DNA of 62,545 nt from Spirochaetia bacterium (GTDB lineage: Bacteria; Spirochaetota; Spirochaetia; CADAEX01). The DNA is taken from assembly GCA_963662265.2 (NCBI GenBank), contig CAXXHA010000041.1:1-62545 (forward strand), read 5' to 3'. The notes below the pieces were generated by a model that was not told the DNA's origin, made no database searches, and was given only the letters and a program-made list of their open reading frames with translations. The position numbers and the translations under genes were made by a program. Positions 1,057 to 51,013 of this stretch are shown here, in pieces. Position 1 is the stretch's first letter. Every line of letters starts with the position of its first letter.

Positions 1057-3447
1057 GTGAGAAAAATTAAACACATCTCATTAACTGCCGCTTTATTATT
1101 TCTTCCTTTAGTACAGGCATTCAGCGAAAACAGTATGGATAAAGCTGCAGCAGGATCAAATATACCGATGTATTGTGTTATTGCATCGGTTATAGCGCTG
1201 CTGTTTGCAGTATTCTTTTACAGGAAAATGATGGGGGCTCCTGAAGGAACTGACACAATGAAGGAAATTGCCCAGAGTGTCAGGGAAGGAGCTTATGCCT
1301 ATCTTGCAAGGCAGTACAAAGTTGTAACAATTGTTTTTATAATCCTTGTAGTAATATTTTACATACTTGCAGTAATGGGTGTGCAGAATCCTTTTGTTCC
1401 AGTAGCTTTTCTGACCGGAGGTTTTTTCAGCGGTCTTTGCGGTTTCCTGGGAATGAAAACTGCTACAAATGCATCTTCAAGAACTGCCCAGGGAGCAAGT
1501 ATAAGTCTAAACAGCGGTCTACAGGTGGCTTTCAGAAGCGGTGCTGTAATGGGGCTTGTTGTTGTCGGATTCGGTCTTCTCTATATTTCCATCTGGTATA
1601 TTATTCTTGATAAACTTGTTTATACTGCTGCCCATATGGCGGAAGGTCTGAAATTTGCAGGCTTGATCCTTGTCCATGAAGGAATGGATCCTGGTGACAG
1701 GCTTGTCGAAATAACAACCACAATGATTACCTTTGGTATGGGTGCTTCTACACAGGCTCTTTTTGCACGTGTAGGGGGCGGAATTTATACGAAAGCAGCT
1801 GATGTCGGGGCTGACCTTGTCGGTAAGGTTGAGGCTGGTATACCTGAAGATGATCCGAGAAATCCTGCAACAATTGCAGACAGTGTAGGGGATAATGTAG
1901 GTGATGTAGCAGGTATGGGAGCTGACCTTTACGAAAGCTACTGCGGTTCAATACTTGCAACAGCTGCTCTTGGCGCTGCTCTTCCCTCTGTCAGCGGAAT
2001 GTCTCCTCTTCAGGCTGTAACTGCACCTATGCTTGTTGCAGCAGCAGGAATTGTCCTTTCAATCGCAGGAATATTTATGGTCAGGTGCAAGGAGAACGCA
2101 TCCCAGAAAACCCTTTTAAAGAGCCTTCTTGTCGGCACACTCGGCAGTTCTATTCTAATTCTTGCTGCTGTTGCTGTTATGGCAGCCGGCGGCATGATTA
2201 CATGGGGAGTGTTCGGAGCTGTAGTGTCAGGGCTTGTCGCTGGTGTTATTATAGGCCAGATAACTGAATATTACACTTCTGATGAATTTGCACCGACTAA
2301 AGGGATTGCAGAACAGACCCAAATGGGGCCTGCTACAACAATAATTGACGGCTTTGCAACAGGAATGTTTTCGACAGGCTGGTCTGTAATTATAATTGTT
2401 ATATGTATTATTTGTGCATTTACATTTGCAGGCGGGTATACAAATATGGCGCTTGGGCTTTACGGAATCGGTTTTGCTGCTGTGGGTATGCTTGCAACTC
2501 TCGGAATAACACTTGCTACTGATGCTTACGGACCGATAGCAGACAACGCTGGGGGTAATGCGGAAATGAGCGGTCTCGGGGAAGAAGTCCGGGAACGTAC
2601 TGATGCTCTTGATTCGCTGGGTAATACTACTGCTGCTACCGGTAAGGGATTTGCCATAGGATCTGCCGCATTGACTGCAATGGCTCTTCTTGCAGCTTAT
2701 ATAGAAGAGGTGAGGATCTGGATTGGAAGGCTTGCTTCATCTGCATCAGATGGTATTTACAGGGTCGGTGATGTCCTTTTCAGTGCAGATGGTTCTGTTC
2801 CCGGTACTGTTGCGGTAAAAAGTGCTGCTATATCTGATTTTATTCAGGCTTATAATCTTACTATAATGAACCCGAAACTGTTGAGTGGATTATTCATAGG
2901 TTCAATGATGGCATTTGTTTTCTGTGCCTTTACTATGAAAGCTGTTGGACGGGCGGCAGGAGATATGGTTAATGAAGTGAGACGGCAGTTCAGGGAGATT
3001 CCCGGAATCCTTGAAGGAAAATCAAAACCTGATTATGCAAGCTGTGTTTCTATTTCCACAAAAGGAGCGCAGAAAGCAATGGTTCTGCCTTCTTTTCTTG
3101 CAATATGTGTCCCTGTTTTTACAGGCCTTTTACTTGGTGTCGCAGGTGTGATGGGGCTGCTTGCTGGAGTCCTTACAGCAGGTTTTGTGCTTGCTATTAC
3201 GCTTAATAATGCAGGCGGAGCATGGGATAATGCCAAGAAGTATATTGAAAAAGGGCATTACGGCGGAAAAGGCTCTGATGCGCATAAGGCCGGTGTAGTG
3301 GGGGATACTGTAGGAGATCCTTTTAAAGACACATCAGGACCGTCACTTAATATTCTTATCAAACTTATGGCTATGGTTTCTGTTGTTTTCAGCGGTGTTA
3401 TAGTAAGATTTGGCCCGATGATTGCTGAACTTCTTAACATGAAATAA
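1057..3447 (+). CDS. hppA: K+-dependent membrane-integral pyrophosphatase, Na+,H+-PPase-like lineage
   Basis: [29 protein letters not shown] (Ala K+-dependence determinant), [10 protein letters not shown]; many TM helices. Confidence 0.95.
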   Translation: MRKIKHISLTAALLFLPLVQAFSENSMDKAAAGSNIPMYCVIASVIALLFAVFFYRKMMGAPEGTDTMKEIAQSVREGAYAYLARQYKVVTIVFIILVVIFYILAVMGVQNPFVPVAFLTGGFFSGLCGFLGMKTATNASSRTAQGASISLNSGLQVAFRSGAVMGLVVVGFGLLYISIWYIILDKLVYTAAHMAEGLKFAGLILVHEGMDPGDRLVEITTTMITFGMGASTQALFARVGGGIYTKAADVGADLVGKVEAGIPEDDPRNPATIADSVGDNVGDVAGMGADLYESYCGSILATAALGAALPSVSGMSPLQAVTAPMLVAAAGIVLSIAGIFMVRCKENASQKTLLKSLLVGTLGSSILILAAVAVMAAGGMITWGVFGAVVSGLVAGVIIGQITEYYTSDEFAPTKGIAEQTQMGPATTIIDGFATGMFSTGWSVIIIVICIICAFTFAGGYTNMALGLYGIGFAAVGMLATLGITLATDAYGPIADNAGGNAEMSGLGEEVRERTDALDSLGNTTAATGKGFAIGSAALTAMALLAAYIEEVRIWIGRLASSASDGIYRVGDVLFSADGSVPGTVAVKSAAISDFIQAYNLTIMNPKLLSGLFIGSMMAFVFCAFTMKAVGRAAGDMVNEVRRQFREIPGILEGKSKPDYASCVSISTKGAQKAMVLPSFLAICVPVFTGLLLGVAGVMGLLAGVLTAGFVLAITLNNAGGAWDNAKKYIEKGHYGGKGSDAHKAGVVGDTVGDPFKDTSGPSLNILIKLMAMVSVVFSGVIVRFGPMIAELLNMK

Positions 3448-18031: not shown

Positions 18032-18624
18032 CAGGAAATTCCTGGTTATACAGCGATGAAGTAAAGGAACATTTTCAGAATCCTAAAAATGTTCTTGATG
18101 ACGAAGATAAATATGAAAGCGACGGCAGGGGTGAAGTGGGAAATATTTCCTGCGGTGACCAGATGCTTGTTGTTATCAAGGTTTCTGACGGAAAAATCAG
18201 TGACTGTAAATGGAAAACTTACGGCTGCGCAAGCGCGATTGCAAGTACTTCCATGATGTCTGAAATGGTTAAGGGTATGACAATAAAGGACGCATATCAT
18301 ATAAAGCCTGAAGAGATAGTCGGCAGCCTTGGCGGACTTCCGGATCACAAGATTCACTGTTCTGTCCTCGGCGACAGGGCTTTAAGAGCCGCAATCGAGG
18401 ATTATTACAGACGAAATAATCTTGAGTCTGAAATTGAAGAGATAGAGGCAAAGGTAATCTGTCACTGTCAGAATGTTACAGACAAGGATATTGAGAAATT
18501 TGTCATGGAGGGGGGCAAGACTTTTGAAGAGCTCCAGGAAAAAACAAAACTTGGAACAGTCTGCGGCGGATGTGTCGATACAGCCAAAGAACTCCTGCAT
18601 GAATACCACCATTTATACGGATAG
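18028..18624 (+). CDS. IscU/NifU-N scaffold fused to a BFD-like [2Fe-2S] domain
   Basis: SCGD, YGCASAIAS, KIHCSVL, then CHC...GTVCGGC. Confidence 0.9.
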   Translation: MTGNSWLYSDEVKEHFQNPKNVLDDEDKYESDGRGEVGNISCGDQMLVVIKVSDGKISDCKWKTYGCASAIASTSMMSEMVKGMTIKDAYHIKPEEIVGSLGGLPDHKIHCSVLGDRALRAAIEDYYRRNNLESEIEEIEAKVICHCQNVTDKDIEKFVMEGGKTFEELQEKTKLGTVCGGCVDTAKELLHEYHHLYG

Positions 18625-18680
18625 ACAAAAATCTTGTTAAAATTTATTTGACAGTTTATAATTTCCCTGACACCTTGTGT

Positions 18681-18824
18681 CAGGGATTTTCTACATGGAC
18701 GTAGTTATCCCGGCCCGACAGGACGTCGGAAAAGCCGGGATTCTACATGGATGTAGTTATCCCTGCCCGGCATTGACTATTGTCCCGTTTCAAACGGGGT
18801 GCCGATGAGGCCGGGTTTTTTTTT
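18681..18824 (+). ncRNA. Candidate structured sRNA with three A(N)GGA-loop hairpins (CsrA-binding or TwoAYGGAY-like) and a terminator
   Basis: Closing stem CAGGGAT/ATCCCTG; hairpins CTAC-ATGGAC-GTAG, CCGAC-AGGAC-GTCGG, CTAC-ATGGAT-GTAG; then CCCGGC...GCCGGG + T9; TTGACA at 18648. Confidence 0.6.
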
Positions 18825-18927
18825 GCACAGAGCAGTACAGTACTGCGCAGTGATTATTATACTGCATTGTAAATGACTTTGAGAAATGGATGTCTAACAA
18901 GAAAATAAACTTTAAAGGCGGGTTTTT

Positions 18928-20211
18928 ATGGATGTTTTGAAACAGATACTTAAATATGAAGTATTTCCAGCCCTGGGCTGTACAGAGCCAATTGCTGTCG
19001 CGTTTGCATCTTCAACAGCCGGTAAAGAACTCACTGGTGAAATAACCGATGTTGAAATAATTACAGACGCAGGTGTCTATAAAAACGGATTTGCTGTAAC
19101 TGTTCCCAATACAGGTGGTGAAAAGGGTAATCTCATTGCAGGGATAATCGGTGCAATGATAGGAAAACCGCAGCTCAAGATGGAAATTCTTGAAGAGACA
19201 ACTGAAGATTATATCAAAAAAGCAAAAGATATGATCAGAAACAGGCAGGCAAGGATCAATTATGACAAGTCAAAATCAGATCTCTATATTGATGTGACAG
19301 TCAAGGCTGAAAGCGGAACTGCCAGGGCAGTTATTGAAAAATCCCATACAAATATAGTCCTGATTGAAAAAGACGGAAAGACTGTTTTTGAAGCTGAGAA
19401 AAGTGAAGAAAAGTGCGAAACATCATATAAAGATGAACTCAGGAAAATGAAAATTGCAGATTTTATCGGAATAGCCGAGAATATTGACTCAGAACAGTAT
19501 GAATATATCAAGTCAGGCATAGATATGAACCTGAGGATTGCAGAGGCAGGCCTTGAAATTAAGAAAGTCGGATATTATATTTCTACACTCAAGGAAAAAG
19601 GGCTTGTTGCGGAAGATGTATTTACAATAAGCAAGATAACATCTGCTGCTGCATCAGATGCGAGAATGGCTGGGCTTAACTATCCTGTTATGGCAAGCGG
19701 AGGAAGCGGGAACCAGGGGATTGTTGCTATCCTTGTACCCTATATTTTCGGATCAGAATATAAAATAGCAGAAGAGACAATTGTAAAGAGCATAACACTT
19801 TCCCACCTGGTCAACAGTTATATCAAGTGCTATACAGGACAGCTTTCACCCCTCTGCGGATGCGCTATTGCAGCAGGAGTAGGGGCAGCTGTAGCTATGG
19901 TATATCAGACATGCGGTGCAGATATGGACAAGATAACACTTGCGGTAAACAACCTCATAAGCGATCTTGGGGGGATGCTTTGTGACGGTGCAAAGGGTGG
20001 ATGTGCCCTTAAAGTTGCTAGTTCAGCCGATTCTGCTGTCAGAAGCGCATACATGGCTATGAACAATCACGGAATTACTTTTTCAGACGGTTTTGTCGGT
20101 AAGACAGCGGAGGAGACAATTCTTCACCTCAGCGAAATCAGCAAGCTCGGTATGTCGGGAGTAGACAATACCATGCTTGATATCATGGTTGAGAAGAGTC
20201 ACAGGGCGTGA
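18928..20211 (+). CDS. L-cysteine desulfidase family protein (CyuA/YhaM, serine dehydratase alpha-like)
   Basis: PALGCTEP, DARMAG, GSGNQG, LSPLCGC, GMLCDGAKGGCALK. Confidence 0.88.
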   Translation: MDVLKQILKYEVFPALGCTEPIAVAFASSTAGKELTGEITDVEIITDAGVYKNGFAVTVPNTGGEKGNLIAGIIGAMIGKPQLKMEILEETTEDYIKKAKDMIRNRQARINYDKSKSDLYIDVTVKAESGTARAVIEKSHTNIVLIEKDGKTVFEAEKSEEKCETSYKDELRKMKIADFIGIAENIDSEQYEYIKSGIDMNLRIAEAGLEIKKVGYYISTLKEKGLVAEDVFTISKITSAAASDARMAGLNYPVMASGGSGNQGIVAILVPYIFGSEYKIAEETIVKSITLSHLVNSYIKCYTGQLSPLCGCAIAAGVGAAVAMVYQTCGADMDKITLAVNNLISDLGGMLCDGAKGGCALKVASSADSAVRSAYMAMNNHGITFSDGFVGKTAEETILHLSEISKLGMSGVDNTMLDIMVEKSHRA

Positions 20212-20480: not shown

Positions 20481-20753
20481 GTGACTACGCAAATATATGT
20501 TGGTAATATGAATTACACAGTAGAAGAGGTTGATTTAGGGGAACTCTTTGAACAATATGGCACAGTTAATAGTGTGCGAATAATATCAAACCGAAAAAAT
20601 ACAAAATCCAAAGGTTTTGGATTTGTTGAAATGGAAGACAATGAAGAAGCAAAACAAGCTATTCGAGCCCTTAATGAAGCATTATGGAAGGATCGGGAAA
20701 TTGTTGTTAATGTAGCCCGGGCAAGAATTGAGAGATTTTATTACAGTTATTAA
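20481..20753 (+). CDS. RRM RNA-binding protein
   Basis: RNP2 IYVGNM, RNP1 KGFGFVEM; GTG start with SD AGGAG. Confidence 0.92.
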   Translation: MTTQIYVGNMNYTVEEVDLGELFEQYGTVNSVRIISNRKNTKSKGFGFVEMEDNEEAKQAIRALNEALWKDREIVVNVARARIERFYYSY

Positions 20754-21224: not shown

Positions 21225-21506
21225 ATGTCAAAAAATATTTATGTGGGAAATATCAGTTTCAATGCTCAGGAGCATGATCTTGAAAAGATCTTTGCGCAGT
21301 ATGGGGAAGTTGTTAGTGTAAAAATTATCGAAGATAAATACACAAATCAGTCAAAAGGGTTTGGATTCGTTGAGATGACGGAAGAAGATGCTGCAACAGC
21401 TGCAATATCAGCTCTAAACGGATCAGAATTAATGAACCGTGAATTGAGAGTCAATGAAGCAAAAGAACGAAATGACAATTCTCGTAATAATAGCTACAGA
21501 TATTAA
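21225..21506 (+). CDS. RRM RNA-binding protein
   Basis: IYVGNI, KGFGFVEM, RELRVNEA; SD AAGGAG. Confidence 0.94.
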   Translation: MSKNIYVGNISFNAQEHDLEKIFAQYGEVVSVKIIEDKYTNQSKGFGFVEMTEEDAATAAISALNGSELMNRELRVNEAKERNDNSRNNSYRY

Positions 21507-50804: not shown

Positions 50805-51013
50805 ATATAGCTCCTCCAACAAGTCTGATATAAAAATTAATAAACAACTGTAATCAGTTTGTTAAACTGTCTTTTCCGTTTTTAAACTTTTTTTAAGGGA
50901 AAAATATTGAAAGCATATTACCTTTTCCTTCTTTTTGTTACAAGGATTTCATCCGAATCTTTACATATGCCTCTTCATGAGTGAATAATATTTTCTATAG
51001 ATGTATAGCATTA

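Follow-up and report, generated by a model that had tools for sequence, protein, structure and literature searches.

Layout of the nifU-proximal element

The window analysed here, a stretch of 62,545 nucleotides of spirochaete DNA, carries genes for ApbE, an Rrf2 regulator, a class-V aminotransferase of the NifS type and NifU, followed by an intergenic element on the plus strand and by a gene (18928-20211) for a cysteine-desulfidase-like protein of the serine-dehydratase-alpha family. Two small RRM-domain RNA-binding proteins are encoded 0.3-1.3 kb downstream of the latter gene, at 20481-20753 (90 aa) and 21225-21506 (93 aa). A degraded paralogue of the SDH_alpha-family gene lies elsewhere in the genome (C1:157706-158662); it is 31% identical and has 13 stop codons inside the match.

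A promoter scan places a predicted sigma-70-type promoter, TTGTTA-17 nt-TATAAT (10/12 matches), at 18634-18662 on the plus strand. The original prediction had instead taken TTGACA (18648-18653) as the -35 box and paired it with a weak -10. This fails: a perfect TATAAT (18657-18662) begins after a gap of 3 nt, too close for TTGACA to serve as its -35 box, whereas TTGTTA stands at a fitting 17 nt and is, from the hexamers and their spacing, the likely promoter of the element. Transcription is predicted to start at about 18669, within the 5' arm of a terminator-like hairpin (TCCCTGACAC/GTGTCAGGGA, 18664-18686) of 10 bp followed by TTTT (dG -16.4, T-run 4). This hairpin is likely the weak terminator of the nifS-nifU operon, and the repeat described below begins right after it.

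The hairpins, the arms, the long GC hairpin, the T9 run and the alternative 5' hairpin that the original prediction listed are all found where it had located them, on the plus strand. A 23-nt direct repeat with one mismatch (18689-18711 and 18741-18763) divides the element, which therefore consists of two tandem units and is not a purpose-built junction. Unit 1 (18689-18741) comprises a first hairpin, CTAC-ATGGAC-GTAG (hairpin 1, 18691-18704, with the loop ATGGAC at 18695-18700), and a clamp hairpin, ATCCCGGC/GCCGGGAT (18707-18741), the apical part of which is CCGAC-AGGAC-GTCGG (18715-18729). In unit 2 (18741-18824) the first hairpin is CTAC-ATGGAT-GTAG (hairpin 3, 18743-18756, with the loop ATGGAT at 18747-18752), and the place of the clamp is taken by the long GC hairpin CCCGGC...GCCGGG (18766-18815), which is followed by T9 (18816-18824) and is predicted to serve with it as an intrinsic terminator. 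The 97-nt core holds six GGA triplets against 1.08 expected (Poisson P about 9e-4), three of which sit in hairpin loops.

An identical element is present in one sequence set (X4), in which the contigs are broken at the internal repeat; nine of the ten listed sequencing runs contain some part of the stretch, and no RNA run of this organism is among the ten. The sole RNA contig (X9) covers 18388-18609 only, in the nifU gene of a relative.

Predicted fold and the orthologous locus

The element is strongly folded, with a z-score of -5.0 and none of 200 shuffles equally stable. The four-way junction that the original prediction had drawn around a closing stem of CAGGGAT (18681-18687) and ATCCCTG (18759-18765) is a different matter: both arms exist, but the junction is not the minimum-free-energy structure. 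Calculated from the predicted start at 18669, it reaches -58.4 kcal/mol, compared with -69.3 kcal/mol for the minimum, in which the arms of hairpin 1 pair with those of hairpin 3. The arms of these two hairpins are the same palindrome. A fold that keeps the local hairpins lies at -61.4 kcal/mol, 8 above the minimum. The first-hairpin stems of this copy measure only 4 bp, and the minimum-energy structure leaves two of the three GGA loops hidden within an internal loop.

In the sister species G001, the downstream protein is 88% identical and the orthologous intergenic region holds a shorter version of the element, with a promoter, a 5' hairpin, one GGA hairpin and a GC hairpin with T7. Both promoter hexamers and their 17-nt spacing are kept while the spacer sequence differs, and the counterpart of the 18664-18686 hairpin is kept as well, albeit without its T-run. 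The GGA hairpin of G001, ACTTTC-ATGGAC-GAAAGT, combines the loop ATGGAC of the window copy with a wholly different stem (CTAC/GTAG in the window). Its clamp and T7 form the terminator, and this single unit scores 30.5 bits, and 55.3 bits with the covariance model R2 introduced below. The closing stem CAGGGAT/ATCCCTG finds no partner sequence in the G001 orthologue and cannot form there; it is possible in the window copy only and is absent from the family consensus. In G002, a plain terminator comes after nifU; its stem is similar to the repeat clamp, the GGA hairpin is absent and the downstream gene is another one. In G003, of genus g2, only a short spacer without the element parts nifU from the downstream gene.

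A multi-copy family of structured repeats

A blastn search with the element found it once in the genome and gave no significant match in 40 relatives, since the family to which it belongs is too diverged to be found in this way. We therefore scanned the genome for hairpins with the loop C-A-(T/A)-GGA-Y-G, using the reversed genome as a control. The scan gave 121 matches against 61 in the reversed genome, and the surplus falls in intergenic clusters and arrays. With its two units, the window element belongs to a multi-copy, lineage-specific family of repeats that are structured and intergenic; in this genome the family occupies at least 17 loci. The original prediction had named many dispersed copies as the mark of a repeat element and as counting against its own proposal, and such copies are what the genome contains.

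The unit common to the 17 loci consists of a first hairpin with a C-A-(N)-GGA-Y-G loop, five bases, and a clamp hairpin that starts with AUGCCGRG or a variant of it, carries a second C-A-N-GGA-Y-G loop at its tip and has a 3' bulge. Arrays contain one to six units; those at C17 and C7 are called by Tandem Repeats Finder as 54 nt x 6.2 and 53 nt x 2.6, respectively. The covariance model R1, built from five units, finds 24 units in the genome and gives the window unit only 19.1 bits; with R2, built from 43 units, window unit 1 scores 45.1 bits (E 1.6e-7 genome-wide). Units at different loci have a median identity of 50% and a maximum of 84-89%, and no identical copies at different loci were found in the family.

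Between copies the stems vary and covary, while the loops stay fixed as C-A-(N)-GGA-Y-G. MAFFT put the stems out of register when 7-nt and 8-nt loops were mixed, and the alignment was accordingly seeded from one loop type and the remaining units were aligned by Infernal. Across the 43 aligned units, 93.0% of the cells pair, compared with 71.2% in shuffled alignments and 32-38% with partners slid, and 109 cells show a double change against 27.4 in shuffles; these counts lean towards the model, because the alignment was fitted to it. The first-hairpin loops of these units are nearly invariant (CAGGAUG 16, CAGGACG 6, CAUGGACG 5 and CAUGGAUG 4), and 33 of 35 retain the C-G pair that closes the first hairpin. 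At two positions of the clamp, 12 of 42 units have G-A/A-G where the window copy has G-C, and 24 of 42 have U-G as the outer pair of the clamp. Wobble pairs number 27 G-U against 6 A-C overall and 3 against 5 once a single column is dropped, so that they do not settle the strand.

The largest array of this genome, and the most CsrB-like, lies at C17:50387-50726 (L046). Its six tandem 54-nt units with about 12 GGA-loop hairpins directly follow a hairpin with T9; the nearest upstream ORF of at least 100 aa is divergent, a gene starts downstream near 50886, and the G001 orthologue has fewer and different units.

Other repeats were met along the way. At C15:7065-7490, a segment with a GCAAAG-CAGGACG-CTTTGC hairpin occurs in three copies about 204 nt apart and gives no match to the family model. 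Tandem repeats of 43 nt are found at C10:325122-325246 and C23:22579-22757; the C10 array shares the TATGCCGAG clamp start and sits where G002 has a canonical unit (L066). A further tandem family of 76-77 nt, with two to four copies and 92-99% matches in Tandem Repeats Finder, occurs at C1:288663-288819, C32:115708-116008 and C39:67905-68129.

Arrays start behind terminators and turn over between orthologous sites

Arrays start 0-3 nt after the hairpin and T-run of an intrinsic terminator and are oriented like the upstream gene. In a strict test, which asked for a stable hairpin and a T-run of at least 4 within a few bases of the first hairpin, 13 of the 17 loci qualified, as against 158 of 20000 random positions (0.8%); two more loci were recognized by eye. 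The array is co-oriented with the upstream ORF at 14 of the 17 loci, and at least five of the 17 are then followed by a convergent gene. The flanking genes of the 17 loci are unrelated, and no constant association with a class of downstream gene was seen among them. Placement behind terminator T-runs is a new feature, which bears on how such modules spread and are transcribed. Integron attC sites and group IIC introns, considered as terminator-targeting analogues, were dropped because their core motifs are lacking.

Comparison with the sister species reveals turnover. Of 13 loci in G001, ten could be assigned: six are at places where this genome also has an element, one faces a decayed remnant (C13, about 16.6 kb) and three face empty sites. 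At the empty orthologous sites the two genomes still share the terminator, and their sequences diverge from the T-run on. Unit number also differs between orthologues, being two here and one in G001 at the window locus and six and about two, respectively, at C17. Gain and loss at orthologous sites, together with the change in tandem copy number, show mobile-like turnover.

Nine Y1 transposase hits were found in this genome, G001 and G002, and no family hairpin stands beside the gene in the six loci examined; two lone motif hits occur elsewhere within these roughly 3-kb loci. G013 and G005 carry the repeat with no Y1 transposase hit.

Two arrays of G001 have unusual surroundings. In L080, two repeat units at about 1501-1611 lie between the terminator of a T-box leader (1132-1451; 70.5 bits, cut-off 93, E 1.8e-13) and the gene that it regulates, hence inside the 5' leader. 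In L074, an array of two to three units (1501-1660) precedes a 16S rRNA gene (2263-3057) by about 600 nt. The Rfam family Bacillaceae-1, discussed below, has likewise been described as sometimes adjoining rRNA operons.

Distribution of the family

Searched with R2 at E<=1e-4, the family is present in 8 of 20 genomes of the taxonomic family: 3/3 in clade g1, 2/3 in g2, 3/5 in g4 and 0/9 in g3. A class-level sample of 151 genomes, run with stricter filters, yielded it in three (G000, the genome of this window, G005 and G040).

A pattern scan over one genome per species, which is a sample by pattern and not a taxonomic census, returned at least 117 stretches. Of 18 that were read among the matches listed, seven have the two-hairpin unit, eight are coding repeats and three are ambiguous; the seven come from Thalassotalea, Colwellia, Steroidobacteraceae, a Spirochaetaceae genome and Lentibacillus. 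R2 scores 18 units in 16 of 100 loci searched, all pre-selected by the pattern from the matches listed.

Gammaproteobacterial tandem arrays with the same two-hairpin GGA unit were seen in Thalassotalea (L112, L126), Colwellia (L118, L167), Steroidobacteraceae (L172) and Woeseiaceae (L127). No Rfam family matches L112, L126, L118, L167 or L172 at E<=0.01, and these gammaproteobacterial arrays may be unannotated Csr-type RNAs or relatives of TwoAYGGAY.

The loops resemble CsrA sites

The original prediction had read the GGA loops as sites of the CsrA type, and this part holds. The SELEX ligand of CsrA, RUACARGGAUGU, mostly forms a hexaloop with the flanking C and G paired (PMC7652899). Hairpin 3 of the window matches this ligand at 10 of 12 positions. 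Judged by their sequence, the loops are textbook CsrA-type sites, namely hexaloops A-N-G-G-A-Y closed by C-G, as in the ligand.

The same hairpin recurs in the flagellin leaders. In all nine flaB leaders examined, comprising both of this genome and seven in three g4 genomes (G005, G013 and G015), a hairpin GGC-A(A/G)GG(G)AU-GCC lies upstream of a ribosome-binding site that itself contains GGA. In the two leaders of this genome (C8:135150-135260 and C8:136490-136600, L059), the loop is an A(A/G)GGAU hexaloop closed by C-G, and the hairpin stands about 12 nt upstream of the ribosome-binding site. A layout of hairpin plus ribosome-binding site is that by which CsrA represses flagellin in Bacillus subtilis and Borrelia burgdorferi, and is also reported for Treponema denticola (PMC7652899, PMC9481697), and spirochaete CsrA is reported to repress FlaB (PMC9481697).

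Both csrA and fliW, whose presence the original prediction had wanted checked, occur in this genome, next to each other. Among the 20 genomes of the taxonomic family, the repeat is found in six of eight with csrA and in two of 12 with no csrA hit. This correlation is weak evidence, because it stems mostly from clade g3 and because G008 and G011 have csrA and fliW and no unit at E<=1e-4. The g3 genomes are small and reduced, and the one checked (G004) has no flagellin. The two exceptions on the other side, G013 and G015, carry 12 units each and gave no csrA or fliW hit; they are 90% and 58% complete, respectively, and have flagellin genes on short contigs, so that the csrA-fliW locus may be unassembled.

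Proposed role and alternative explanations

With confidence that we would call evenly divided, we favor the explanation that the element is a predicted CsrA-binding RNA module belonging to a mobile-like, terminator-adjacent repeat family. The arrays would act as RNA, and their fixed loops would be bound by the CsrA dimer, one dimer bridging two GGA loops, which in the window element lie 24 and 28 nt apart. Array RNA would arise when transcription reads through the upstream terminator or, in the case of the window element, from a promoter of its own. That predicted promoter overlaps the terminator hairpin of nifU, and its RNA would be about 150 nt long, with the 3' end at T9. With a start inside the 5' arm, promoter-driven transcripts could escape the nifU terminator. 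The product would be a 3'-end-derived sRNA with three loop GGA sites; these hairpins would also be part of the 3' end of transcripts reading through from nifSU. Taken together, the roughly 17 loci could form a distributed CsrA-titrating pool beside the protein antagonist FliW. The RNA level of most arrays may be low, because they lie behind terminators and have no recognizable promoter.

This differs in scale from the compact, independently terminated sponge of the original prediction. A conserved predicted promoter and a strong terminator do flank the element, in keeping with that proposal, but a family with at least 17 loci here and members in 8 of 20 genomes is not one compact sponge gene.

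The same behavior could be that of a selfish repeat of the REP, BIME or BOX type, whose copies insert behind the T-runs of terminators and multiply by duplicating locally, with hairpins and loops that serve a mobilizing enzyme acting on DNA or RNA. The likeness to CsrA sites would then be incidental and the nifU-side copy would have no role. Several observations fit: presence and absence at orthologous sites switch exactly at the T-run, a decayed remnant persists at C13, copy number varies between orthologues, the distribution is lineage-restricted, and units at non-orthologous loci are up to 84-89% identical. TwoAYGGAY elements, too, are described as mobile-like in Pseudomonas (preprint 10.64898/2026.09.22.753630). 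Covariation of stems around fixed loops would also be expected if an enzyme recognized hairpin shape and loop at the DNA level. Against this stand the six Y1 transposase loci, none of which has flanking family hairpins, the genomes G013 and G005 with the repeat and no Y1 hit, the lack of identical copies between loci at a median identity of 50%, and the fixed loop, which is the motif of flaB leaders that are not repeats. We consider a purely selfish repeat rather unlikely. Mobile-like behavior and the predicted CsrA binding are not mutually exclusive, however, and both may be true.

A role in cis, as leader or attenuator of the cysteine-desulfidase-like gene, had been offered by the original prediction as its second reading. 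A factor on the GGA hairpins, CsrA or another, would choose between the T9 terminator and a pairing of GCCGGG (18734-18739) with CCCGGC (18766-18771). The sequence offers the GCCGGG segment pairings that exclude one another, the promoter is conserved with G001, where about 52 nt with no evident promoter separate the terminator from the start codon, and in G003 the downstream gene directly follows nifU as one operon lacking the element. Yet the G001 orthologue, with its one unit, allows no antiterminator to be drawn, a weak promoter-like site follows the terminator in this genome (18879-18906), and the start region of the downstream gene, including its ribosome-binding site, has no GGA. Because at least five of the 17 loci precede a convergent gene, the family as such is not a leader, and the reading, which fits this locus poorly, appears improbable. 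ANTAR-type antitermination, which involves two hexaloops with A1 and G4, was considered and dropped, the G001 orthologue having one such hairpin only.

It is more doubtful still, indeed very improbable, that the functional RNA lies on the minus strand, in the orientation of Rfam Bacillaceae-1, with UCC loops pairing to ribosome-binding sites of target mRNAs. The RF01690 match (30.7 bits, E 6e-4) and a promoter-like site at 18885-18856 speak for this strand. The predicted promoter and T9 terminator, by contrast, are both on the plus strand, the co-oriented arrays follow the terminators of their upstream genes, and the U-G outer clamp pair of 24 of 42 units would read A-C on the minus strand. 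The authors of the Bacillaceae-1 motif, moreover, are reported to have been unsure of its strand (PMC4333381).

If a predicted CsrA-binding module is the right explanation, the level of CsrA-titrating RNA would be a measure of terminator read-through across the genome, with added input from a few copies driven by promoters, such as the window element and the six-unit array at C17; dozens of perfect CsrA hairpins at about 17 loci would contribute. CsrA of FliW-bearing bacteria is thought to be governed by a protein partner switch and not by sponge RNAs. A spirochaete of the FliW type would thus possess a second, RNA-based layer of CsrA control, and the two-hairpin unit might be a pan-bacterial, mobile-like CsrA-binding module, which we propose only tentatively and regard as possible, not probable. 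Among the matches listed, Bacillaceae-1 shows this unit, as do arrays without annotation in Alteromonadales, Woeseiaceae and Steroidobacteraceae. The genome offers a clean test case, with one csrA-fliW locus, flaB leaders with a native site, arrays with the same loop, and one array copy, the window element, that has its own conserved promoter and terminator, both predicted.

Relation to known repeats and Csr RNAs

BOX elements of pneumococci and BIME/REP elements of enterobacteria are dispersed, modular repeats with variable tandem subunits near gene ends, and can fold as RNA. The present family differs in conserving loops rather than stems and in starting after terminator T-runs, and no associated transposase was found; repeats flanking a Y1 transposase gene, the hallmark of REP/RAYT systems, were not seen in the six loci examined in this genome, G001 and G002.

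With the CsrA sites of flagellin leaders (B. subtilis hag, B. burgdorferi flaB, T. denticola flaB1/2) the units share a GGA hexaloop closed by C-G. In those leaders a second site is located at the ribosome-binding site and translation is repressed, whereas the repeat units are not beside a start codon. The sRNAs CsrB, CsrC and RsmX/Y/Z are closer in form, being arrays of GGA-loop hairpins; by their sequence the present arrays could likewise titrate CsrA, and the copy in the window adds a predicted promoter and terminator of its own. They differ from these sRNAs in having no sequence or model match to them and in occupying many small loci rather than one to few genes. Their host has FliW, and the presence of FliW is reported to be anti-correlated with BarA-UvrY, the driver of Csr sRNAs (PMC7652899).

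At gathering score, Rfam gives no match over the window, and no Rfam family matches the family units in 20 loci at E<=0.05. The search suggested by the original prediction, with the models of TwoAYGGAY (RF01731), CsrB and Rsm, returned no match at E<=10 within 18600-18940; the best TwoAYGGAY score genome-wide, 22.9 bits for a site at C17, stays under the cut-off of 43. There are nonetheless resemblances to TwoAYGGAY. The window element has two hairpins with AYGGAY loops (ATGGAC and ATGGAT), and tandem G-A pairs, present in the TwoAYGGAY stem (PMC4333381), occur in the family clamp in 12 of 42 units, the window copy having G-C instead. The basal stem of TwoAYGGAY, from which both its hairpins arise according to the 2026 preprint (10.64898/2026.09.22.753630), might correspond to CAGGGAT/ATCCCTG, a stem that can form in the window copy but as noted is not the minimum-energy choice (-58.4 versus -69.3 kcal/mol) and lacks a G001 counterpart. 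Unlike TwoAYGGAY, the window element has a third hairpin between the AYGGAY hairpins, and its basal stem is not conserved. In the same preprint, the TwoAYGGAY elements of Pseudomonas are characterized as multi-copy, associated with repeats and mobile-like, and a role as a Csr/Rsm sponge is raised.

The nearest Rfam family is Bacillaceae-1 (RF01690), which aligns at full length (model positions 1-67) to the minus strand at 18690-18750 with 30.7 bits against a cut-off of 35 (E 6e-4 locally, 1.6e-3 genome-wide). Bacillaceae-1 has a two-hairpin architecture with RUCCU loops, GGA being on the other strand, and the window unit shows the same. Read as its reverse complement, Bacillaceae-1 resembles the family part by part, with a first hairpin of the CAGGAYG type, a short linker, and a longer hairpin that is bulged on its 3' side and bears a loop of the CAGGACG type at its apex. 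A true Bacillaceae-1 member in Lentibacillus (55.3 bits, on the strand opposite GGA) was caught by our family pattern, and R2 gives it 27.4 bits. The differences are that the window unit scores below the Rfam cut-off and that the family belongs to a spirochaete, forms multi-copy tandem arrays and is tied to terminators.

Both TwoAYGGAY and the reverse complement of Bacillaceae-1, the latter in Firmicutes of the FliW type, have been proposed by Gardner and Eldai as CsrA-binding sRNAs (PMC4333381). The notion of a Csr sponge outside Gammaproteobacteria, which the original prediction put forward, was therefore already in print; it named the right kind of site and erred in seeing a unique compact sponge or a junction. 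We conclude that the family is a variant, absent from Rfam, of a kind of RNA that had already been hypothesized in the literature.
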